Shown piece by piece: positions 18,969-49,800 of a DNA stretch of 54,354 nt. The DNA is from a virus (Duplodnaviria; Heunggongvirae; Uroviricota; Caudoviricetes), in IMG/VR virus record IMGVR_UViG_2541047692_000008, positions 1 through 54,354 of that record, one strand, 5' to 3'. Within the stretch, counting starts at the first letter, position 1. Every line of letters starts with the position of its first letter. A program made the position numbers and the translations under genes. The notes under the pieces are model-generated. The model worked only from the letters and a program-made list of their open reading frames with translations. It made no database searches and had not been told where the DNA came from.

Positions 18969-19147
18969 AAAACGAAGTTAAAGATCTGCAAATAGATATT
19001 CAGCGCGACGAGCGTGATTTAGAGACGGTCCGACAAATCCAGGCTTTCCACATGCGCGAATTACTTGCGCTGAAAGAGTTCGAAAGAAAGCTGGTGCAAT
19101 CCATTTCTGATCGTAAACGGCTGGCGGCGCGTTATGAGGGCAAATAA
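18965..19147 (+). CDS. Hypothetical coiled-coil protein (60 aa)
   Basis: ORF coupled between rusA and Q-like gene. Confidence 0.45.
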   Translation: MKNEVKDLQIDIQRDERDLETVRQIQAFHMRELLALKEFERKLVQSISDRKRLAARYEGK

Positions 19148-19875
19148 TGAATTTAGAATCCATTCTAAAATTCCACTTTCCTAAATCACCGCGATTATCT
19201 GACGAAAGCCGGGGCACGTCCCCGGACGCTCTTAATACGACGGATGCGCTAACCGCTGCGGGTATGGCGCAATCGCGCGTAGAGCTTGGATATGGCGCTT
19301 TTTTAGGGAAGATGGAACTATCACAAGCCGAAAAACATAGGGCCGTAGTTTTGCTTACAGAGCGTTTAAGGGCTATGGCGAAAGATTACGAATACGTGAT
19401 GGAGTTAAACGAGGATCAGCGCAATGGACTTATTATTCTTGTTGCCGTTTTCGCGTTTCGGGATTATTGCCAGAGTGCGGCGACCGAAAAAGTTTGCCCT
19501 AAGTGCGGCGGCCACGGGCATTTACCAAATCCATATTGCAAATACACATCGACAATTTGTTCGCGGTGCAACGGCAAAGGCTACGTTAAAAACCATTGCC
19601 AACGTTGCAAGGGGCGCGGAGAAGTACCGGATAAAGCAGCCAGTGAAGCGGCGGAAATGCCAGTATTCAAAACGTGCCAGCATTGCGGCGGGCGCGGGTA
19701 CTCGCGTTTCCCGGTAGATCTCGTCCGGCAGGCCGTTAACCAGCTTGTTTTCCCGGTAAGCAGATCAACATGGTGGAAGAAATACCGGGTTTTCTATGAA
19801 GACGCCATAGCGGAGCTATTCAAAGAAGAGGCCCGCGCGGAAAGCGAAATTAAACGAGTGACACGGGGTGAATAA
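19147..19875 (+). CDS. Q-like late antitermination protein candidate with four CxxCxGxG zinc motifs
   Basis: 242 aa; N-terminus MNLESILKFHFPKSPRLSDE resembles Qin/82-type Q as recalled; position after ninG-rusA; CPKCGGHG, CSRCNGKG, CQRCKGRG, CQHCGGRG repeats (DnaJ-like zinc finger pattern). Confidence 0.55.
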   Translation: MNLESILKFHFPKSPRLSDESRGTSPDALNTTDALTAAGMAQSRVELGYGAFLGKMELSQAEKHRAVVLLTERLRAMAKDYEYVMELNEDQRNGLIILVAVFAFRDYCQSAATEKVCPKCGGHGHLPNPYCKYTSTICSRCNGKGYVKNHCQRCKGRGEVPDKAASEAAEMPVFKTCQHCGGRGYSRFPVDLVRQAVNQLVFPVSRSTWWKKYRVFYEDAIAELFKEEARAESEIKRVTRGE

Positions 19876-21984: not shown

Positions 21985-22218
21985 ATGCGTATCTATGAAC
22001 ACAAGCGGGATAAAACCCGCTTTTTTGTTCGTGCTGGCGTGGCGTACCAGTATCACGAATGTGGATATATTGAGGTGCTTGCTTACAACCTGGATTTCGA
22101 ACAAGAAAAAGAATGGTTTGACTTTAAGATTTACCGTAAGCGCAAGCCAACGCGCGACGAACGACACGCTATCCGGGACTTTTTAATCAGCATAGACCAC
22201 TGGGAGGCAGACGAATGA
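21985..22218 (+). CDS. Hypothetical protein (77 aa)
   Basis: Operon context. Confidence 0.45.
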   Translation: MRIYEHKRDKTRFFVRAGVAYQYHECGYIEVLAYNLDFEQEKEWFDFKIYRKRKPTRDERHAIRDFLISIDHWEADE

Positions 22219-22502
22219 GAGCGAAGAAAACAGCAGATCAGAAAGCGTTAGTTATCACTACAACTGATGTGTCGTTATTCACGAAGGGTGAAGAAATAGA
22301 TCTTAAATTACTTTTCGGCATGTTTGAGCCACACGAAAAGCCGTGGTTCGTGCATGAAGACAAACAGGGAAATATGCGCGTAGTAGTGCCGGACAAAAAC
22401 AGCGACATATTTTTTGCTATTCCAGACCCGTTACATGACGGTGAATTGCTGGCGGTATTGTTGATCGCTGATGCTGTTACTTATAAAGGGAAAGAAATAT
22501 GA
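22215..22502 (+). CDS. Hypothetical protein (95 aa)
   Basis: Operon context; overlapping stop/start. Confidence 0.45.
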   Translation: MRAKKTADQKALVITTTDVSLFTKGEEIDLKLLFGMFEPHEKPWFVHEDKQGNMRVVVPDKNSDIFFAIPDPLHDGELLAVLLIADAVTYKGKEI

Positions 22503-22726
22503 AAGTTAAATTCTTGCACGATCACGGCTACCCATCATTAAAACGCGTGGTAGGGGAAACGGTAGACGTTGTTCATTCTGATGATGTGACCTGCGTCATT
22601 TTGGGTAAAGACCTTATCGCTCACGGTGCTGATGATTACTACATTAACCCGGCGTGGTCATATACGTTTAGCCTGGGCGACTTCGTAGGCGATAAGGGGC
22701 GCGGCTTGCAAGTAGTCGAGGGTTAA
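22499..22726 (+). CDS. Hypothetical protein (75 aa)
   Basis: Operon context. Confidence 0.45.
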   Translation: MKVKFLHDHGYPSLKRVVGETVDVVHSDDVTCVILGKDLIAHGADDYYINPAWSYTFSLGDFVGDKGRGLQVVEG

Positions 22727-22730
22727 TATC

Positions 22731-22946
22731 ATGGACGTTTACGAAGATTTATACCTTCAAACAAATACCAGCACTTTTTATTTTTTGAAAAACGGCGTCG
22801 TATATCGCAGCGATGACGGGGTAATAATGAAAGAGTGGCTATTTAAACGCAAAGACCTACTTGATGACCTGGTTTTTGCCGGGATATTCCGTAAACGTCC
22901 GGCTAACCTGGAAGAAGAAATGCTGATCGACGAGGTATTAAAATGA
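22731..22946 (+). CDS. Hypothetical protein (71 aa)
   Basis: Operon context. Confidence 0.45.
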   Translation: MDVYEDLYLQTNTSTFYFLKNGVVYRSDDGVIMKEWLFKRKDLLDDLVFAGIFRKRPANLEEEMLIDEVLK

Positions 22947-23194
22947 AAATCAAGGTAAGTTATTTCAGGGCGAAAGATAAGGCCACTGGACGGATGATGG
23001 CTATTCTGGTTAACGAAGCGAATTATATGTTCTTCCTTCAACCGTGGTGCATTGCCGATCTTAATGACGATTATCGCCGCCACGCTGCGCGTAGTGCTGT
23101 AGGCATGAAAGGCTGGCAGCCGCGCGACATGGAAAACTATAGCGAGTGGAAATTGGTGGTAAAATACACGGTCGATTATAAAGGGGTTTTCTGA
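22943..23194 (+). CDS. Hypothetical protein (83 aa)
   Basis: Operon context. Confidence 0.45.
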   Translation: MKIKVSYFRAKDKATGRMMAILVNEANYMFFLQPWCIADLNDDYRRHAARSAVGMKGWQPRDMENYSEWKLVVKYTVDYKGVF

Positions 23195-23418
23195 TGTTTG
23201 TAAAATGTATAAAGTCTCGTTTCCCTAATCTTTTTGTGGTTGATGAGATTTACGACATAGAAACGCTAATAAGCAGAACTAACGATATTCAGTACATTTA
23301 TGATGAAGATGGCGATCCGTGGTTTTTTTATAACGATCTCAATGGTAGCGGATTCGTTGATGGCGTTGGCGGTAATGGTGTGCCAGTTGCGCTATTTATA
23401 AATGCAAATAAGGAATGA
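23194..23418 (+). CDS. Small protein, tandem paralog 1 of 4
   Basis: Shares pattern [KR]C..S....F..G.IY.V....D..YI..D..G..W.[FY] with the next three ORFs. Confidence 0.5.
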   Translation: MFVKCIKSRFPNLFVVDEIYDIETLISRTNDIQYIYDEDGDPWFFYNDLNGSGFVDGVGGNGVPVALFINANKE

Positions 23419-23630
23419 ATATCATGTATGTTAGATGCACTGAATCAAAATCATCATGCTTTGAGGTTGGCGGAATATATACCGTAGCTCACCTGACTGG
23501 TGATGAACTTAACACCCAATACATTAAAGACGACCACGGAGACGCGTGGCGCTATTGGGATTGTTACGCGCGTGGACACGTTGCCAGCCAGTTCAGTACG
23601 GAACCGATCGCGCGTTTTGTTAAGTGGTGA
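23415..23630 (+). CDS. Small protein, tandem paralog 2 of 4
   Basis: MYVRCTESKSSCFEVGGIYTVAHL...QYIKDDHGDAWRYW; alternative ATG at 23424. Confidence 0.5.
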   Translation: MNIMYVRCTESKSSCFEVGGIYTVAHLTGDELNTQYIKDDHGDAWRYWDCYARGHVASQFSTEPIARFVKW

Positions 23631-23639
23631 GGTAGTGTT

Positions 23640-23879
23640 ATGAGACAGAATCAGAGATACCAGTGCACATACTCACGATGCAGCGCGTTTTTTAAGAATG
23701 GCAAGATCTACGAAGTCGGAGCGGCATTGTTTGACGCAAAGGATCAGGAATATATTCACGCCATTACTGACGACCAGGGCCAGTTATGGCGATTTTATAA
23801 GATGGGATGTGGAACTGCGCTTGTTTATGCGCGGGCTTGTGGTGGTGCTTTTGCTGCGTTTTCGTATGTAGGTGCATAA
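23640..23879 (+). CDS. Small protein, tandem paralog 3 of 4
   Basis: YQCTYSRCSAFFKNGKIYEVGAAL...EYIHAITDDQGQLWRFY. Confidence 0.5.
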   Translation: MRQNQRYQCTYSRCSAFFKNGKIYEVGAALFDAKDQEYIHAITDDQGQLWRFYKMGCGTALVYARACGGAFAAFSYVGA

Positions 23880-24099
23880 AATGATTTTAACGTGTAACGA
23901 ATCGGGATTAGGTTGTTTTGAGGAAGGAGCACAGTACACGGCTGAAAAACCGATGGGATTGTCTCCTAAATTTCCGTTTATCGTCGTGACTGACACTTAC
24001 GGTCACTTATGGTATGCAGGGCCGCTAGGCGGTATTGGTCGTTATGTTGTCCGTAGTTCGGATGGGGCGATGAAGGTTACTTTTACGGAAGAAACGTAA
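23872..24099 (+). CDS. Small protein, tandem paralog 4 of 4
   Basis: MILTCNESGLGCFEEGAQYTAEK...FIVVTDTYGHLWYAG; alternative ATG at 23881. Confidence 0.5.
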   Translation: MHKMILTCNESGLGCFEEGAQYTAEKPMGLSPKFPFIVVTDTYGHLWYAGPLGGIGRYVVRSSDGAMKVTFTEET

Positions 24100-24100
24100 A

Positions 24101-24116
24101 TGTGATCTGTATCACA
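24101..24116. promoter_or_regulatory. TGTGA-N6-TCACA palindrome with GATC (CRP consensus-like)
   Basis: tgtgatctgtatcaca; followed by inverted tacgaaatggca / tgccattttgtta pair (24119-24160). Confidence 0.45.
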
Positions 24117-24197
24117 AGGTTTACGAAATGGCATTGTTTCGACAGTGCCATTTTGTTATAAAGAAGCTGAAGAGAGAACGATGCGGAGGGTAGAAAA

Positions 24198-24476
24198 ATG
24201 AAACGCTGGATTAACAAAGAAGTCGAATCTCGCTTAAACGCATTTTGGGAGATGGTGGAGAAAGAAGACCCAGCACACGCTGCAAGCCCTTACCTGAACA
24301 ACATCGAATATCACTACATTGCAGCAAACAACGCGGAGTTCGAAGAAGAAGGTGGAGCCGACAAGTTCGCACAAAGCAACGCATTCAACAACGCAAACGA
24401 AATGATGATGGCAGTCATCGAACAGGCAGAGGAAGACTACGAATGCAAATCACTTGAATTTGCACGCATGGCATAA
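24198..24476 (+). CDS. Hypothetical acidic protein (92 aa)
   Basis: ggaggg RBS; follows an intergenic regulatory region. Confidence 0.5.
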   Translation: MKRWINKEVESRLNAFWEMVEKEDPAHAASPYLNNIEYHYIAANNAEFEEEGGADKFAQSNAFNNANEMMMAVIEQAEEDYECKSLEFARMA

Positions 24477-24485
24477 GGGGGAACC

Positions 24486-24623
24486 ATGAACGCTAACGCT
24501 AAATATCCGGCCTGGGTTTTCGAACTATACGCCCGCTACTTTGAAGTATTGGCACCAGGTGAAGAAGCATTAAGCATTGACGAATACGCGGAGTGCTTAG
24601 GATTTAGAGGAGGAGAAGAATAA
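24486..24623 (+). CDS. Small hypothetical protein (45 aa)
   Basis: Hand-found; aaggggga RBS; fills gap between flanking ORFs. Confidence 0.35.
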   Translation: MNANAKYPAWVFELYARYFEVLAPGEEALSIDEYAECLGFRGGEE

Positions 24624-24635
24624 ACACGGGGCAGA

Positions 24636-24917
24636 ATGGCCCCATCAAACGGAGTAGAAATTATGGTTGTGATCAGACTATGGCGCGGAGTTAGTAGGCT
24701 TGATGGCACATACAGCCGTGTAATTGAGGTTGTTAACAATAGTCGGTTTTATGAACTGGAATACAGCGAAAAAAGGGAGAATGAATATTTGAGCGAATCG
24801 ACCCCTATGTGGTGCAAAGTGGCTGGCCTTTCTTCACTTATGCGTTGCGGGTTTTATACAGATTATAACACGCTAACAGATGCCGAACTGGTGGCAACTC
24901 TTTACGAAGGAGAATAA
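24636..24917 (+). CDS. Hypothetical protein (93 aa)
   Basis: Operon context; alternative ATG at 24663. Confidence 0.45.
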   Translation: MAPSNGVEIMVVIRLWRGVSRLDGTYSRVIEVVNNSRFYELEYSEKRENEYLSESTPMWCKVAGLSSLMRCGFYTDYNTLTDAELVATLYEGE

Positions 24918-24920
24918 ACA

Positions 24921-25244
24921 ATGACTAAATTTATCAGCGTTAAAGTTTTCCGTGGTACTTTACCGAACGAAGAAAGATTGGGGGAATTCGCCGGGCAACC
25001 TGGCGCATGTTTCCGTGTAGCCACTGAAGACGATGCGCATGTTAAATGCTTCCACGTATCGGAACCGCCTTTTAATGCAGACCATCTTGAAGACCCGGAT
25101 AGAATTAAAAGCCTAGTTTTTGCCTATCTGATGTTCCAGGGTATCGCTAATATGGAAGTGGAATTGCTTGGCGCTGAACTGGCGGCAGAATACAAAATCA
25201 CTAAAGCAGAAAGTGGAGGGTCGGAAATTGAGCGCATCAAATAA
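24921..25244 (+). CDS. Hypothetical protein (107 aa)
   Basis: Operon context. Confidence 0.45.
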   Translation: MTKFISVKVFRGTLPNEERLGEFAGQPGACFRVATEDDAHVKCFHVSEPPFNADHLEDPDRIKSLVFAYLMFQGIANMEVELLGAELAAEYKITKAESGGSEIERIK

Positions 25245-25479
25245 ACCTTACAAAATCCGGTGTAAAGGCGAATACCCTGGGTTTACGATTGGTTGCGAAT
25301 ACCTGGGCCACATTGGGTACGGCCCTTTCGGTGAATTAGGGATGAATACGCTGGACGACGACGGCGACAGCCGGACGCTCGATCTTGATACGGATGACTT
25401 CGAATATATCCCTCCAGTTACTTACCGTGCCGTAGATGATTTCCTGGCTGAACAAGAAGATGATGAAGAGGATGATTAA
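25228..25479 (+). CDS. Hypothetical protein with strongly acidic C-terminus (about 83 aa, TTG start)
   Basis: ggaggg RBS 7 nt before TTG 25228; track ORF begins at ATG 25168 inside the previous gene; C-terminus ...DDDGDSRTLDLDTDDFEY...EQEDDEEDD. Confidence 0.4.
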   Translation: MSASNKPYKIRCKGEYPGFTIGCEYLGHIGYGPFGELGMNTLDDDGDSRTLDLDTDDFEYIPPVTYRAVDDFLAEQEDDEEDD

Positions 25480-25481
25480 CT

Positions 25482-25622
25482 ATGGATGACGAATACGTTA
25501 ACAATTTTATTGTTATGTTTCTTAGTGAAAATTGGCGCATGTTTGAACATTATTGTTTTGAGCGCGGGGAAAATGCTGAAGAAATATATCAATATTTAGG
25601 CGGGGAGAAAGAGGATGATTGA
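25482..25622 (+). CDS. Small hypothetical protein (46 aa)
   Basis: Hand-found; gaggatga RBS. Confidence 0.35.
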   Translation: MDDEYVNNFIVMFLSENWRMFEHYCFERGENAEEIYQYLGGEKEDD

Positions 25623-25809
25623 ATGTCTTATCATTGCTGTGTTTCTCCTTTATATTGCTGGCGCTATCCTGATGTCTTGTTTTATCAAATCTAATGATCT
25701 CGATCGTGGTGGTCTTGAGATTCCTTTCTGGCCTGTAGCGGTGTTTATTGCTCTCGTAGATGCCGCGCGCGCGCAGATCAAAAGGGTTATTAAGGAGCGC
25801 AAGAAATGA
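25615..25809 (+). CDS. Small membrane protein (64 aa)
   Basis: Two hydrophobic helices (IIAVFLLYIAGAILMSCFI; FWPVAVFIALV). Confidence 0.45.
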   Translation: MIECLIIAVFLLYIAGAILMSCFIKSNDLDRGGLEIPFWPVAVFIALVDAARAQIKRVIKERKK

Positions 25810-25988
25810 TTGAAGATGGTATATACGCCGTAACACTAATCGACAAGATGTTTTATCGCATAGAGGGTGGTGATATTCGCGTTTGCGTTAGCGATGGTGA
25901 GTGGGTAGCGCCAATCATCAAGACGACGCGAGAAACAATTAAAATCTGGCTTGATAATGGCGATTTGGTGAAAGTTAGTGATTTGTAG
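25806..25988 (+). CDS. Hypothetical protein (60 aa)
   Basis: Last ORF of the block before the terminator and holin. Confidence 0.45.
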   Translation: MIEDGIYAVTLIDKMFYRIEGGDIRVCVSDGEWVAPIIKTTRETIKIWLDNGDLVKVSDL

Positions 25989-26051
25989 CCATAATCGCGC
26001 ATAAAAAACAAATAGATTAAAATATTTCCTAACAATGCGAAATTGTAATTA

Positions 26052-26075
26052 CCCGGCCACGAGCCGGGTTTTTGC
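26052..26075 (+). terminator. Rho-independent terminator upstream of holin (candidate tR')
   Basis: cccggc-cacga-gccggg followed by tttttgctttgtt; about 20 nt before the holin RBS. Confidence 0.6.
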
Positions 26076-26093
26076 TTTGTTGGAGGAAAATCT

Positions 26094-37476: not shown

Positions 37477-37859
37477 AACGCAGCGAGGTTTACGACGAAA
37501 TAAGGGATTGGATTAAATCCCACGGGTACGACGAAGGTTATATTTTGCAGGCCCGTTTCTGGAATGAGCGATCCAATTCGAATAACAGCAGATATATTGT
37601 CATACAGCAAAACGGCGGCGCGGCGGGAGAAGAGGCGATAACCCGTGACTATTTTCGCATCCTGGTTATTTCAGCGCGTAACGATGCAAATATTAGTGAA
37701 GTGGAAGACCTCGCCGACGCAATACGTCAAAGTATGATAACCGAGTATAAAACTGATAAAATTACACACATGAAGCCAGTTGGCGCTATTCCCGCAATGC
37801 AGACGAGAGAAGGGCGCTTTATTTTTACCGTAGCTTTTCAAACCATAATATCCAGATAA
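37473..37859 (+). CDS. Tail terminator/neck protein candidate (128 aa)
   Basis: Operon context; precedes major tail gene. Confidence 0.4.
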   Translation: MKRSEVYDEIRDWIKSHGYDEGYILQARFWNERSNSNNSRYIVIQQNGGAAGEEAITRDYFRILVISARNDANISEVEDLADAIRQSMITEYKTDKITHMKPVGAIPAMQTREGRFIFTVAFQTIISR

Positions 37860-37872
37860 GAGGTAACTAAAC

Positions 37873-38349
37873 ATGTCTCAGACTTGCGAAAAAGGCACGT
37901 TTACAGGCCGTGACGTTGCTGTATTCTTCGCTATCGCTTGTCCAAATGCGAAGCCGGAAGCTGAAGCGTACAAAGCGTTAGGCATGATGCGTGGTAAAAC
38001 ACTTTCCGTTGAATGGGAAACCGCTGACGCCACCGCCGATAAATCAGCCGATTACACGAAAGAATCAATGGTTACTTACAAATCCGTTTCTTTCTCCGGC
38101 GACGGTGTGTCCCGCACTGAAGAAATCCATAATCAGAAAGCGCTGAAACGCCACGTAATTACGCCAGGTGAAACCACCGGATCACAACCTTATGTATGGC
38201 TGAAGATCGTTTCTCCTGTAGACGTAACTGAAGGCCCATTCCTTTGCACTTCCTTTAAAGAAGAAGATCCGCATGATGATGTTTCCACCTGGTCTATTGA
38301 GTGCGAAAGCGCTGGCAAGGTAACGGTAGGCGACGTTCCGCCAGCATAA
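37873..38349 (+). CDS. Major tail tube protein candidate
   Basis: 158 aa; strong RBS aagaggtaacta; followed by terminator; upstream of chaperone-position gene and tape measure. Confidence 0.6.
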   Translation: MSQTCEKGTFTGRDVAVFFAIACPNAKPEAEAYKALGMMRGKTLSVEWETADATADKSADYTKESMVTYKSVSFSGDGVSRTEEIHNQKALKRHVITPGETTGSQPYVWLKIVSPVDVTEGPFLCTSFKEEDPHDDVSTWSIECESAGKVTVGDVPPA

Positions 38350-40267: not shown

Positions 40268-42610
40268 ATGGCTACCAGTGTAGGTACAATTTATTACGAA
40301 GTTGATGCGAAAACTGGTCAACTTCTCGTTGCACAACGACAGGCAGACCAGGCCTTTGATCGTATAGAGCGCGGCGCAAAACAGGCTGACCGCCAGGTAA
40401 ACACCCTGAAAACATCCATCAAGGCACTGACCAGGGTTATCCATCTGCTAATTGCTGCGGAGGCTGTGCGCCAATTTATGGATATGGCGGAGCAAGCAAA
40501 AATGCTTCGCGTAAAAATCAAAATGCTTACGGGCGATACGGAGTCCGCCGGACGGGTTTTCGACGGCCTGAAAGCAATATCCAGGGAGACGGGGCAGAGC
40601 CTGAAAGATACTGGCGAATTATGGCAAGGCCTGGCTATCTCACTAAAAAACACCTCCGCTACGGAAGGGCAATTGCTTAACCTGGTTGGCACTATTCAGA
40701 AAATGGGTGCATTAGGCGGCGCGTCAGCGGAACAGATGTCTAACTCAATGCGTCAATTCCGTCAGTCTATCGACGGCGGTGTTCTTCGTGCCGAAGAATT
40801 TAACAGCCTGCTTGAAAATACGCCGACCATCGTACAAACAATGGCCCGCCATATGGGATTATCAATGGGCCAGTTCCGCGCCGAAATGCTGGACGGCAAG
40901 ATCACGGCTGAAAGGATGGTTAACGCAATACAGGCGGCTACGCAGGAAACAAACGATAAGTTTGCTCAGTTGCCGCGCACATCCGGCATGGCTATCAATG
41001 AGCTTAAAGTAGAAATTATGGGCCTTGTTGAGCAGTTGGATGATCTTTTTGGCGTGTCAGATGGCGTTGTTTCAGCTATCGACTTGATCACGAAAGGCGT
41101 TAAAGGGCTTGGCGATGGCGCTAAATTCGCTAAAACCTGCTTCGACACACTCAAAACGGCTGGTAGCGAATTTATCGACATGTTTGATGATGTGGCTGTT
41201 AAGGCTGGAGAGGTGGCAGAGAAGATCATCGCAATGGTGACGCCAATCAAGGCGCTAATGGATGGCTATAAATGGATGAAGGAGGTAGTAGGAGAGCAAA
41301 CCGACGAATATAACAGCAACTACGAGAAGAAATACGGGAAGACCGTTGGCAAGGTCATGCAACTACAGGATGATCTGACCGCAGCAATCCAGGCTACAGA
41401 AGAAGCAAGGAAAAATGAACAGAATGCTGCCAATGACGGAGCGATTACCGGATTCGACAAGCCAGTAGACAAGCCGAAAAAACAGAAAAAAGAGAAGAAA
41501 TCGGAAGCTGATCGGCTTGGTGACAAAGGTATAAGCGTTTCTGATCAGTACAACAAAGACGCCGCCGCCATGCGCAAAGCGTTGGAGAACGGCAAGGCCA
41601 TTGATGCTGCATTTGCCCAGGGTAAAATCACGCTCCTTGAGTACCGCGCCGCGCAAAAAGGGATCGGCAAGGAACTGAAAGAAGAATTAGCACAAATTCC
41701 GGTAGATGAATTGCGTGATAAATGGTCACAAATAGTAAGCCCGATGGATCAGCTAAAAGGCGAAGTTGACCCCATCCAGCAGGCGCAAAATGAATGGGCC
41801 ATCCGTAAGCAAATGCTTATAGACCTGGGCGCTACTGAAGCGCAACAGAAACAGGAATTGTTAGCCTATGAGCAACAGATCCGCGATCTGAAATGGGAAC
41901 AATGGCAGGCGCAAAGCGACACAAACGGCCTTATCGGTGATTGTGTTAATGGCCTTAAAGGCGGAATGAGTAATGCGCTTGTTGGCCTGTTAAACGGCAC
42001 TCAATCATTGAGTGATGTTTTTGCTAACTTAGGAAGCAATATACTCGGCAATATCGGTAACAGACTCTCAGACATAGCTGCAAACTGGATAGCAGATCAG
42101 ATCATGATGGAGACACAAAGCAAGGCCACGCAAACAAGTACAACAGCAAGCGCGGTAGCAGCTCAGGGAAGCATTGCTGCGGCGGCGGCCCCAGCAGCGG
42201 CGGCAACTGCGGCGTCAACTGGCGGTAGCTGGGCGGCGGCTGGTTCGGCGGCGCTCACTGCGATCATGTCGCTGGCTACGTCAATTTTCGGCGGCGGTCG
42301 CTTTAATGGTGGTAGCGTCATTGGTGGTAATATGTACCGCGTAGGGGAACACAACAGGCCGGAGCTATTCCAGACATCTAACGGCAATCAATATATGATC
42401 CCTGGCGAGAACGGCAGAGTTATTCCGGGCCGTGATATTGGCGGCGGTGGCGGTATTAGTATGCCTGTCAGTATCAGCATTCAGACCACGAACGGATTCA
42501 GCGACGAAGACAGCCGCAGACTTGAATTAACAATGGAACGTGTAGCCATGAAAATGATAACAAGGGAATCTCAAAGACCAGGCGGAATGTTGCAACCTCG
42601 CCGCAAATAA
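40268..42610 (+). CDS. Tail tape measure protein
   Basis: 780 aa; long alpha-helical protein with Gly/Ala-rich C-terminal segment; position upstream of lambda-like M, L, K, I, J. Confidence 0.85.
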   Translation: MATSVGTIYYEVDAKTGQLLVAQRQADQAFDRIERGAKQADRQVNTLKTSIKALTRVIHLLIAAEAVRQFMDMAEQAKMLRVKIKMLTGDTESAGRVFDGLKAISRETGQSLKDTGELWQGLAISLKNTSATEGQLLNLVGTIQKMGALGGASAEQMSNSMRQFRQSIDGGVLRAEEFNSLLENTPTIVQTMARHMGLSMGQFRAEMLDGKITAERMVNAIQAATQETNDKFAQLPRTSGMAINELKVEIMGLVEQLDDLFGVSDGVVSAIDLITKGVKGLGDGAKFAKTCFDTLKTAGSEFIDMFDDVAVKAGEVAEKIIAMVTPIKALMDGYKWMKEVVGEQTDEYNSNYEKKYGKTVGKVMQLQDDLTAAIQATEEARKNEQNAANDGAITGFDKPVDKPKKQKKEKKSEADRLGDKGISVSDQYNKDAAAMRKALENGKAIDAAFAQGKITLLEYRAAQKGIGKELKEELAQIPVDELRDKWSQIVSPMDQLKGEVDPIQQAQNEWAIRKQMLIDLGATEAQQKQELLAYEQQIRDLKWEQWQAQSDTNGLIGDCVNGLKGGMSNALVGLLNGTQSLSDVFANLGSNILGNIGNRLSDIAANWIADQIMMETQSKATQTSTTASAVAAQGSIAAAAAPAAAATAASTGGSWAAAGSAALTAIMSLATSIFGGGRFNGGSVIGGNMYRVGEHNRPELFQTSNGNQYMIPGENGRVIPGRDIGGGGGISMPVSISIQTTNGFSDEDSRRLELTMERVAMKMITRESQRPGGMLQPRRK

Positions 42611-43291: not shown

Positions 43292-43645
43292 ATGCCGGAA
43301 GTGTTCAGATGGACGCCGCAAAGAAGCTACAGCGTGACCAGGAAGCCAGACGTATCTGTTGTTAAGCTGGGCGATGGTTATGAGCAAAGACAGGTAAAAG
43401 GTATCAATCCATTGCTTGATAGCTACACCCTGGTGTTTAAAGGCAGTAGCGCCGGATGTGGTGATGGTGGAAACGTAGCAATCCAGGCGGAAGCATTCTT
43501 GAGGGCGCGCGGCGCGGTCGAGGCTTTTTACTGGTCGCCGTCAATGGATAACGTGCAAAGGCTTTTTGTCTGTCGGCAATGGAGCATGACTAAAGACGGG
43601 CCTTTGTACACGCTAAACGCAACGTTTGAGCAAGTTGTTGGCTAA
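43292..43645 (+). CDS. Minor tail protein M (lambda gpM-like)
   Basis: 117 aa; FRWTPQ..., GDGYEQRQ, C-terminal FEQVVG parallel lambda M as recalled. Confidence 0.8.
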   Translation: MPEVFRWTPQRSYSVTRKPDVSVVKLGDGYEQRQVKGINPLLDSYTLVFKGSSAGCGDGGNVAIQAEAFLRARGAVEAFYWSPSMDNVQRLFVCRQWSMTKDGPLYTLNATFEQVVG

Positions 43646-43842
43646 TGGGGGTTGTTATGTACGGGACTTGTGTAGTTGACAAAACTTACGCTTTTACATT
43701 GTTTGACGACTATGAGATCAACGACCTTACTGTAAAAGCTGACAACGGCGATATATGGTATCTTCACGACGTTGGTGATGGGTACGTTGGGTGTAGATCC
43801 CGGGAAGGGAAGGAGGTTTTATTTTTGGTTGATGGCGTATAA
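43645..43842 (+). CDS. Hypothetical small protein (65 aa)
   Basis: ORF inserted between M and L genes. Confidence 0.4.
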   Translation: MGVVMYGTCVVDKTYAFTLFDDYEINDLTVKADNGDIWYLHDVGDGYVGCRSREGKEVLFLVDGV

Positions 43843-46827: not shown

Positions 46828-49800
46828 ATGAGTAGCGGCGGCGGCAAAGCCAAAACACCAACATTATTGAACGATAACCTGTATCACAAACAGTTTTATC
46901 GTGTTTTAGATATTCTCAGCGAAGGGCCGATATACGGTCCGGTAAACCAGAAAGCGCCATTGAATGACGTGATGCTTAATGACACTCCTGTTACTGACGC
47001 AAACGGGAATACATCAATTCCGGGGATTAGTATAGCCTGGCGCAACGGCACGGCTGACCAATCGCCGATTAATGGTTTTAACGCCATTGAGTCAACCGTT
47101 ATTGTCAACGCAAAGGTAACTCACGACACACCAATAATCAGGACTGTTTCAGATCCAAACGTTACCCGCGTCAGGTTGAATCTTGGTGTTGATGCTCTCG
47201 TTCAGTCAGATGAAAAGGGCAATCAATATAATACATCCGTCATGTTGATGGTTGATGTTAAACCGTCATCATCTTCTACGTGGTCGCTGATTAAAGACAT
47301 ACACATTGGCCCTGGTAAACAAAGCGGTGAATACCTGGAAGCTCACATCATTAAAGCGCCGGATGAAAAACCGTTTGATATTCGCGTTCGTCGCATAACA
47401 CCAGACAGCAACGGCGATCTATTGCGGAATGATACGCGGTGGAGTAGTTACAGCGAAATAATAGATGATAATCTGTCTTATCCTCATACCGCTGTAGCTG
47501 GCGCCGTAATTGACCATGATCAGTATACTGATACGCCTACCCGCACCTATCACCTTCGCGGCCTGATTGTTGATGTGCCTGACAACTACAACCCTGAAAC
47601 GCGCACATATTCAGGTTTATGGCTTGGTGGATTTAAAAAGGCGTATACCAATAACCCTGCATGGCTTTTCCGGTATCTGGTTAAAAACGAGCGCTTTGGA
47701 CTTGCTCGACATGCTGGTTACATTGATGTTGATGATGGCGCTTTGTACGTGCTTTCTCAATACTGCGATCAGTTGGTTGATGATGGCTATGGTGGCCTTG
47801 AACCTCGCATGACGCTTAACGCTTACATTACGGAGCAAATGAGCGCCCGCGACCTACTGGATAACATCGCAGGTATGTTCCGTGGTATCGCGTTATGGGA
47901 CGGACAACGTCTTACCGTGATGATTGATGCGCCACAAGATCCAATCGCCACCATCACAAATGCAAACGTCGTTGATGGCGCGTTTACTCGTTCAAGTATC
48001 GCACGCGCAGAATGCTACAACGCCGTGATCGTATCCTGGACTGACCCTGAAAACGGCTGGGAGCAATCAAAAGAATATGTCGCAGATGATAAACTAATCG
48101 CCCGTGATGGTTATAACGAAACCACGTTGGAGGCGTTCGGTTGCACTTCACGCGGGCAAGCGCACCGCGCTGGTAAATGGCTGATCGAAACAGCGAAACG
48201 CGAGCCGTCAAAATTCACATTTAAAATGGCCCGTGACGCCATTCACTTTACGCCGGGGGATATAATCGAGATCCTCGATAATAATCGCGCAGGCGCTCGT
48301 TTAGGCGGTCGCATCGTGGCGAACAATGGCAGAGCGATCACGGTCGACAAGGTTGATTCTGAATATATCGCGGCTGGCGACACCATCAGCTTACTTGATA
48401 GCGATGGTAAATTTAAAAAACACCAGATCATCGGAGTTAACGGGAACATTATCACCCTTGCAGCCGCCCCGGCGTGGATTCGTAACGGCACTGTTTTTGC
48501 TGTATCAACCAACGCAGCAAAACCCGTTTTATGTCGAATCACCAGTGTAGCAGAAACAGAAAATAACAGCGTATACACCATCGAGGCCGCACAGCATGAT
48601 CCACATAAGCAGGCCGTAGTCGATAATGGCGCAATCTTCGAGATCAATAACGACACGCTTAATCACTTCCGCGTGCCGAACATTGAAAATCTGAAGGTGT
48701 TAAACGTTGGATCTGAAACGGTTCAATGTCGCGCAACATGGGAAACACAGACGACAACGCGTCGCCTGACCTTTGAGATTCGCGTGTATAACGCCGAAGG
48801 CGCTGTAGTTAAAAGCTACGAAACCACGAATTACAGTTATGATTTTTATGGCATTGATGCTGGCAACTACTCATTAGGCATTCGTGGCAGAAATGACACG
48901 GGCATGAAGGGTGCGGAAAGCATTGTCGATCTGGTTATTGGCGCACCAGCGGCCCCAGTTGGCGTTAATTGGGTTCCCGGTGTATTCCAGGCTACAGTTT
49001 ACCCGATCAGCAGAACAACGCTCACCACTGATACCAGTTACGAGTTTTATTACTCAGGTGAAACGCAGATCACTGATCCGGCATCAATAACCACTAAAGC
49101 ACAATATACCGGGCGTGGTCATCAGTGGACGTTTGGCGGCATGAATACAGGTCACACATATTACGTTTATGTGCGCGCGCGTAACGCTTTTGGTGTGTCT
49201 GACTTTGTGGAAGCGTCAGGTAAGCCAACAGAAAACTTTGATGAAATTACCGATTACGTCACCAAAGACGTAATGAATTCCAAACAATTTAAAGAAATGG
49301 TTGGTGACATTAAAGATCTAGGCGACCGCACTGATCTTATCGAAAGCGCTACGAATGACCTTAAAACTGCTACTGACAACCTCAAAACTGCAACTGATAA
49401 TCTGACCAACATAACTGACGATTTAAGGACTGAAACTGACAACCTAACCATAGAAACAGGATCAATAAAAGCTGATACTGATACGCTCAAAAAAGAAACG
49501 GAAGATCTTTATAAAAAAGTTAAGGAAAACGCCGATGATATTGGACAGCATGAGTCGAGAATCGACTCGCTGGAGGTGTCTAGCGAAAAAGTTGGCAGCG
49601 AACTGGCGCAAGCAAAAGCAAGTCTGCAAAACGCCTCACTTGCTCTTATTAATAACTCGCTTGCACAGACTAACACTCGCGTAACTCTTACCGCTCAGTA
49701 CAAGAAAGGCAGGACAGAGACGAAAGCGGAAATTGACCGCATTGACAACGTTATCGCTGAAGAGAAAAAAGCGACAGCGGAATCACTGGAAACCATCACG

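Follow-up and report, generated by a model that had tools for sequence, protein, structure and literature searches.

Gp54 of phage Bas11 is a non-essential protein of 66 aa that adopts a six-stranded barrel fold, the topology of which was termed very rare (PMC11578894). In a direct interaction with the antitoxin domain of CapRelSJ46, during which it unfolds in part, Gp54 sets off an abortive defense; the authors speculated that Gp54 may inhibit another defense system (PMC11578894). Gp54 is one of a small number of phage proteins for which direct recognition by an immune sensor of bacteria has been demonstrated, and in the later literature we found no function added for Gp54. We identified Gp54 as bas11_0054, in which 11 of the 11 residues named in the paper match, and it is represented in the databases by PDB entry 9AXB, by Pfam family PF25180 ('Phage antiviral trigger protein Gp54') and by phrog_7421. 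A second point of comparison is the mEpimmI group of coliphages, which a 2025 paper presented as a new lineage of siphoviruses with approximately half of the genes being 'flexible' and located in variable regions (PMC11893012). The small proteins described here, on which our literature search retrieved no study, add to these systems a predicted Gp54-like fold in a sequence-distinct family and the occurrence of this family as combinatorial tandem arrays in temperate phages.

The stretch of DNA that was analyzed (the window) comprises positions 1 to 54,354 of IMG/VR record IMGVR_UViG_2541047692_000008, and by its sequence it is a temperate coliphage of the mEpimmI (mEp021-like) group. In a megablast search of phage genomes with positions 22000-26000 of the window, the only phages matched were mEp021-like 'mEpimmI' temperate coliphages (mEp010, mEp044, MagusPhagus, mEp554, mEp013, mEp021 and mEp515; 83-86% identity over 23-67% of the query), and the array including its terminator shares 99.8% identity with a prophage in the chromosome of E. 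coli N25. The array was present in 19 of 5426 complete E. coli genomes, on the chromosome every time, and no copy was found in a collection of species-representative genomes. It occupies a variable region with a Q-like antiterminator gene on one side and the lysis genes on the other (Table 1), an interval that is filled with a run of small 'hypothetical' genes in related phages. The surrounding genes are all on the plus strand and the array is packed into this same-strand operon without gaps. Homology between the window and mEp021 breaks off at about position 23195, i.e. at the start of paralog A. A small gene just upstream of the array site in mEp021, mEp021_41 (L006 5448-5696), is annotated as 'virion structural protein', and its putative positional counterpart in the window is located at 22731-22946.

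Table 1. Coordinates of the paralogs, the flanking genes and the candidate transcription signals in the window.
Feature	Position	Strand	Remarks
Q-like antiterminator gene	19147-19875	+	phrog_127, E 3e-77
Paralog A	23194..23418	+	74 aa, acidic, pI 4.2; annotated by PGAP in E. coli N25
Paralog B	23424..23630	+	68 aa; alternative start at 23415 gives 71 aa
Paralog C	23640..23879	+	79 aa, mildly basic; best-conserved subtype across related phages
Paralog D	23881..24099	+	72 aa; most divergent copy
Terminator-like hairpin closing the array	24123-24163	+	15-bp stem, UUCG loop, U-rich tail
Weak promoter-like site	25968-25995	+	GTGAAA-16-CATAAT, just upstream of the holin gene
Second, stronger terminator	26051-26079	+	ACCCGGC...GCCGGGT and T tract; ~55 nt after the promoter-like site
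Holin and lysozyme genes	holin ATG at 26095	+	other flank of the array

A previous inspection of the DNA, which we refer to as the sequence-only reading, had listed four plus-strand ORFs (23194..23418, 23415..23630, 23640..23879 and 23872..24099), and all of them are present at these positions. For B, the start at 23424 is favored by its Shine-Dalgarno context, by the PGAP annotation of the near-identical N25 prophage and by database homologs, and for D the start at 23881 is favored by its Shine-Dalgarno context and by homologs; the alternative start of D is a GTG at 23872 that overlaps with the end of C. A good Shine-Dalgarno sequence (aaagggg) precedes A, and the stop codon of A overlaps with the earliest possible start of B. 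Start and stop codons within the array are thus overlapping or closely spaced, indicating co-expression of the four genes. Neither transmembrane segments nor signal peptides were detected in A to D and the pI of A, B and D is in the range of 4.2-5.8; the four products are soluble, cytoplasmic and for the most part acidic, each with a single domain and a length of 68-79 aa. In the RefSeq/PGAP annotation of the near-identical N25 prophage (L030, NZ_CM165897.1 1993453-1996819), C is left without a CDS and D is reduced to a C-terminal fragment of 48 aa. The locus thereby flags under-annotation, with one gene missed and another truncated in a RefSeq genome that contains this prophage.

The proposal that the four genes are diverged paralogs was borne out by Smith-Waterman comparisons against 1000 shuffles, in which the similarity was far beyond chance. 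The z-values were 12.4 for A-B, 10.1 for A-C, 9.1 for B-C and 9.0 for B-D, and for each of these pairs the observed score was reached by none of the 1000 shuffles. Lower values were obtained for C-D (z 3.4) and A-D (z 0.5), so that D, which has no appreciable similarity to A, is joined to the family through B. Leave-one-subtype-out profiles recovered every subtype, and a profile constructed without D and D2 still detected D-type proteins with an E-value of 5e-5 (784-ORF scale). In an alignment of 14 sequences, the invariant columns were C, S, F, Y, D, G, W and a C-terminal F. These columns agree with the shared motif that the sequence-only reading had put forward, except for the 'Cys pair' at its N-terminus, of which one Cys is invariant and the second is present in B, C and D and absent from A.

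No other ORF of the window qualified as a significant member of the family. Four candidates for additional paralogs (22215-22502, 24636-24917, 25168-25479 and 43630-43839; z 4-6, E 0.003-0.5) were rejected because none was significant with the broad profile. In the third of these candidates, a TTG at 25228 is preceded by a good Shine-Dalgarno sequence, giving an ORF at 25228-25479 on the plus strand with a very acidic tail; its N-terminus resembles the family motif (YKIRCKGEYPGFTIGCEY...LDDDGD) without the Trp, with a non-significant profile E-value of 0.48. The small plus-strand ORF 43630-43839 matches phrog_3249 (E 1.5e-22) and has a weak likeness to B (z 5.8, 'VKADNGDIWYLHD'), with E-values of 0.003 for the four-sequence profile and 0.07 for the broad profile; it may have the same fold or represent a chance match. 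This ORF is located downstream of a 780-aa ORF (40268-42610) that is presumably the tape-measure gene.

Among the PHROG clusters, phrog_31142 matched B (E 1.6e-40), A (E 3.4e-9) and C (E 2.5e-5), and D matched none. Scanning A to D against Pfam, NCBIfam and PADLOC, the content of which is defense systems and not inhibitors, retrieved no family, and a sub-threshold match of D to DUF6436 was the sole signal. A profile search of all PDB sequences yielded nothing significant. We found neither an annotated homolog that would give a function for A to D nor homology to characterized inhibitors in Pfam, PHROG, NCBIfam or the PDB sequences. A known structural or housekeeping protein, the identity that the sequence-only reading had named as speaking against its proposal, was likewise not found for A to D among the Pfam, NCBIfam and PADLOC families.

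To describe the variation of the array, 29 loci were classified, consisting of the window, six cultured phages and 22 IMG/VR contigs, the latter being a biased set because they were chosen for carrying a homolog of C. Ten subtypes were distinguished (A, B, B2, E, G, H, C, D, D2 and F), and phages have between 0 and 5 copies. The arrangement [A B] C D of the window also occurs in loci L008 and L015, and other related loci carry B2 C D, G E H C D, E H C D, B2 H C D, A B H C D2 or B2 E H C D. E is the only copy in mEp554, mEp013 contains B2 and a C chimera without D, and mEp021 contains no copy. The 3' pair of C and D (or D2) varies very little, exchange affects the 5' part ([A B], B2, G, E and H), and A and B were always found together. 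The location of the array in a non-core, variable region, as initially proposed, was confirmed by the viability of mEp021 without any copies and by the differences in number and combination among related phages. The genes are a dispensable cassette array that is reshuffled between phages, with dispensability being judged by comparative genomics. Subtype F, the divergent tenth member (78 aa), was found outside the array in mEp044 (L002 382-702; leave-out profile E 3e-5), where its gene lies between a resolvase gene and the Q-like gene, upstream of the latter.

A word-indexed search returned 36 and 50 protein clusters, every one from E. coli or phage, and an exhaustive profile search of 1.84 billion representatives revealed no small relatives outside E. 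coli and its phages. Members of the family occur in mEpimmI (mEp021-like) coliphages and prophages only. The databases additionally contain frameshifted and chimeric members, and approximately 7% of the members are disrupted according to a rough count by member numbers. In the database proteins P0019 and P0027, N-terminal halves of A and B continue into the acidic tail of ORF 25228-25479 with the junction at or near the D-x-x-G-D motif, indicating deletions of roughly 1.9 kb between the array and this ORF. Chimeras of C end with the C-terminus of ORF 24921-25244 or of ORF 25806-25988. The chimeric members are the result of deletions between array genes and downstream genes. A T7 run inside A (23322-23328) is the frameshift point in four independent clusters (P0020, P0022, P0023 and P0024), in which the frameshifted A runs on in an alternative frame; alternative-frame ORFs in the array are located at 23300-23401, 23500-23643 and 23698-23871. 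Frameshifted forms were also observed for B (P0033, P0035) and C (P0017, P0025, P0030), and they may stem from prophage decay, from slippage or from errors of assembly.

The tandem paralogs had been taken as a sign of diversifying selection, and this part of the sequence-only reading was not supported by the substitution rates. Across the 29 related loci, the median dN/dS of orthologs was 0.08-0.19 within subtypes (0.12 for C with 133 pairs and 0.14 for D with 65 pairs), and the lone A pair had a value of 0.42; these ratios are gene-wide and therefore speak against gene-wide diversifying selection. The low values indicate purifying selection within every subtype and consequently that A to D are real coding genes. 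No nucleotide-level repeats were found among the four paralogs and no compositional anomaly was detected, indicating that the duplications are old and not recent. In the absence of nucleotide repeats, the diversity of the array is best attributed to old paralog divergence together with cassette reshuffling and not to rapid evolution by point mutation.

The hairpin that closes the array had a predicted RNA folding energy of -25 kcal/mol (z -4.3), and none of 200 shuffles was equally stable. At the equivalent spot after the last family gene, Rho-independent terminators are annotated in mEp010, mEp044 and mEp554. No convincing plus-strand promoter was found ahead of the array, and promoter-like sites in the region were no more common than in shuffles. 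The best sigma-70-like match in the region is on the minus strand (23204-23175, TTTACA-18-TATAAT, 11/12), exactly at the start of A and pointing leftwards, and may be due to chance. Closer to the lysis genes, the weak promoter-like site is followed by the second terminator, a GGAGG sequence and the holin gene. The layout of positions 25968-26079 resembles pR'-tR' of phage lambda, the target of Q, and may represent the start of late transcription. Since this promoter-like site and terminator are placed before the holin gene, the array may form the distal part of an antiterminated early-right operon transcript and not belong to the late operon.

AlphaFold2 models that were calculated without templates and from shallow alignments of 14-17 sequences had six strands and no helix for both B (pLDDT 88, pTM 0.75) and D (pLDDT 90, pTM 0.75). 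The AlphaFold2 weights are older than the 2024 structure of Gp54. Among solved structures, Gp54 of Bas11 (PDB 9AXB) was the only strong match of these models, and the predicted fold is a small beta-barrel of six strands that has the topology of 9AXB. The conserved residues (C, S, F-x-x-G, Y, D-x-x-G-x-x-W and F) are located on or beside the predicted strands and the beta3-beta4 turn, and the parts that vary between subtypes are the long beta2-beta3 loop and the C-terminal third. Conserved strands combined with a variable loop and a variable C-terminal third are as expected for a scaffold that presents different binding surfaces. A Foldseek search of predicted viral structures (BFVD) retrieved many uncharacterized small proteins of T1-like coliphages with TM-scores up to 0.84, several of them per phage, and such proteins were the top-ranking matches in BFVD.

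At the sequence level, the family could not be connected to Gp54. PF25180 (gathering threshold 27 bits) did not match A to D at E<=1 or the divergent members at E<=10, a probability of 0.1% was obtained when the family was compared with the Gp54 alignment by hhalign, and 9AXB was not retrieved by the profile search of PDB sequences. A bridge via gp71 of Bas11 failed on the Gp54 side (hhalign probability 1%). By eye, the two families have in common a conserved F-x-x-G before strand 2 and a conserved G-x-x-W at the beta3-beta4 turn, and these elements are suggestive; the match between the predicted fold and Gp54 could also reflect convergence on a small barrel. Weak PHROG matches were obtained for B and C with phrog_4927 and for A with phrog_2684, the family of Bas11 gp48. 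In Bas11 itself, gp71 (phrog_9181; L007 45147-45338, plus strand) matched the broad profile with an E-value of 1e-4 (724 ORFs; hhalign 50%, P 2e-4) and the second domain of gp48 (phrog_2684; 37578-37943, minus strand) matched it with an E-value of 0.008. These similarities suggest that T1-like genomes encode several barrels of this kind. With its weak links to proteins of T1-like phages, the family looks like one branch within a larger, unnamed group of small barrels from phages. The N-terminus of Bas11 gp79 (47216-47653, plus strand) matched the family profile with an E-value of 0.06, and gp71, gp48 and gp79 carry the motif C..S....F..G..Y...D..G..[WYF] of the window family.

We consider it reasonably probable, though far from assured, that the array encodes protein-binding accessory modules aimed at host or defense proteins, which are perhaps visible to host sensors. 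This reading is derived from the combination of the predicted fold with its variable surfaces, the dispensability of the genes, the exchange of cassettes and the precedent of Gp54. Each barrel would act as a binding module for a host or defense protein, and the array would constitute a set of such binders for counter-defense or host takeover. The same proteins could be what host sensors of the CapRel type detect, as is the case with Gp54. The lack of signal peptides and membrane segments together with the acidic character of A, B and D favors a soluble cytoplasmic role and disfavors binding to nucleic acids. Inhibition of a variable host factor, as suggested by the sequence-only reading, would be a plausible role for A to D, supported indirectly by the match between the predicted fold and Gp54. 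As a counterargument, a conserved role within the phage would explain the purifying selection and the near-constancy of the C-D pair as well as the targeting of a host factor would.

A single phage-internal function could be exerted if the copies formed one hetero-oligomeric complex, e.g. a C-D core supplemented with A-B or E-H. The pairing of C with D (or D2) in nearly all arrays and of A with B in every case, the coupled translation suggested by the overlapping or close start and stop codons and the purifying selection on all subtypes are in line with such a complex. However, mEp554 with E only, mEp013 with B2 and a C chimera but no D, and mEp021 without any copy are all viable, and we therefore regard a common complex as unlikely. 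Lambdoid prophage genes between Q and the lysis cassette often benefit the lysogen, which raises the question whether the array consists of moron genes that are expressed from the prophage, for example to exclude other phages. The position between the Q-like gene and the lysis genes, the terminator closing the array and the occurrence only in prophages and temperate phages would be consistent with this function. In contrast, no convincing plus-strand promoter precedes the array, no gaps separate the genes from the surrounding same-strand operon, a PADLOC match is absent and the proportion of about 7% frameshifted or chimeric database members (rough count) suggests that the genes are dispensable in lysogens, which makes a moron function doubtful.

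Barrels of the Sm, KOW or cold-shock type could bind nucleic acids and modulate transcription or antitermination in these Nus-dependent phages, but with A, B and D being acidic (pI 4.2-5.8), with matches to SH3, KOW and OB-type folds far below the match to Gp54 and with no Pfam match, we judge this explanation to be highly improbable. Even less credit can be given to the idea that the proteins are fragments of approximately 1.5 blades that assemble into a beta-propeller of the 'two-component regulator propeller' type (Reg_prop, PF07494). The four-sequence profile indeed matched long Reg_prop proteins, approximately 50 in number and each in 4-13 stretches, with E-values down to 9e-12, and one stretch aligned to profile positions 8-66 with 15.9 bits. 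However, single stretches scored 3-16 bits and the E-values are sums over homologous repeats, the Pfam model did not match A to D, hhalign against the repeat alignment gave 6% probability over 26 columns, and both models are closed barrels with Gp54, not a propeller, as best match. The resemblance is confined to the motif of an I-x-x-D-x-x-G-x-L-W hairpin, and homology to Reg_prop was rejected because of the low scores per stretch and the hhalign result, so that the propeller fragment reading is largely refuted.

The reading of the array as a set of protein-binding accessory modules can be sharpened to a model in which the copies are combinatorial Gp54-like barrels and each of them binds another of the host's immunity proteins at its sensor domain, which is thereby blocked or decoyed. 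In this specific form the proposal is speculative and in our estimation improbable to a degree similar to a moron function. If true, the Gp54 fold would acquire a first function and there would be a reason for phages to retain a protein that is detectable by defense systems, and the repertoire would adapt by reshuffling of cassettes between phages and not by point mutation. Phages with 0, 1, 3, 4 or 5 copies, the cultured mEp phages included, provide a natural and genetically tractable set for two questions, namely what the fold does and whether defense sensors see it.

Compared with known small barrels, the window family differs from SH3-like barrels, which consist of five strands with RT and n-Src loops and of a 3-10 helix, by its six predicted strands and by scores for such barrels that are far below the match to Gp54. 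The PHROG clusters that it touches (phrog_31142, phrog_4927, phrog_2684 and phrog_9181) have no function or description and do not capture the tandem array or the variation of its cassettes. The triggering of CapRelSJ46 was shown for Gp54 only. With Gp54 the family shares the character of a small accessory protein that the phage does not need, as judged for the window family by comparative genomics, whereas its beta2-beta3 loop is longer than that of Gp54 and a C-x-x-S at its N-terminus is invariant. Gp54 is encoded by a single gene in a virulent T1-like phage, while the window family occurs as 3-5 tandem, diverged copies in a temperate phage.
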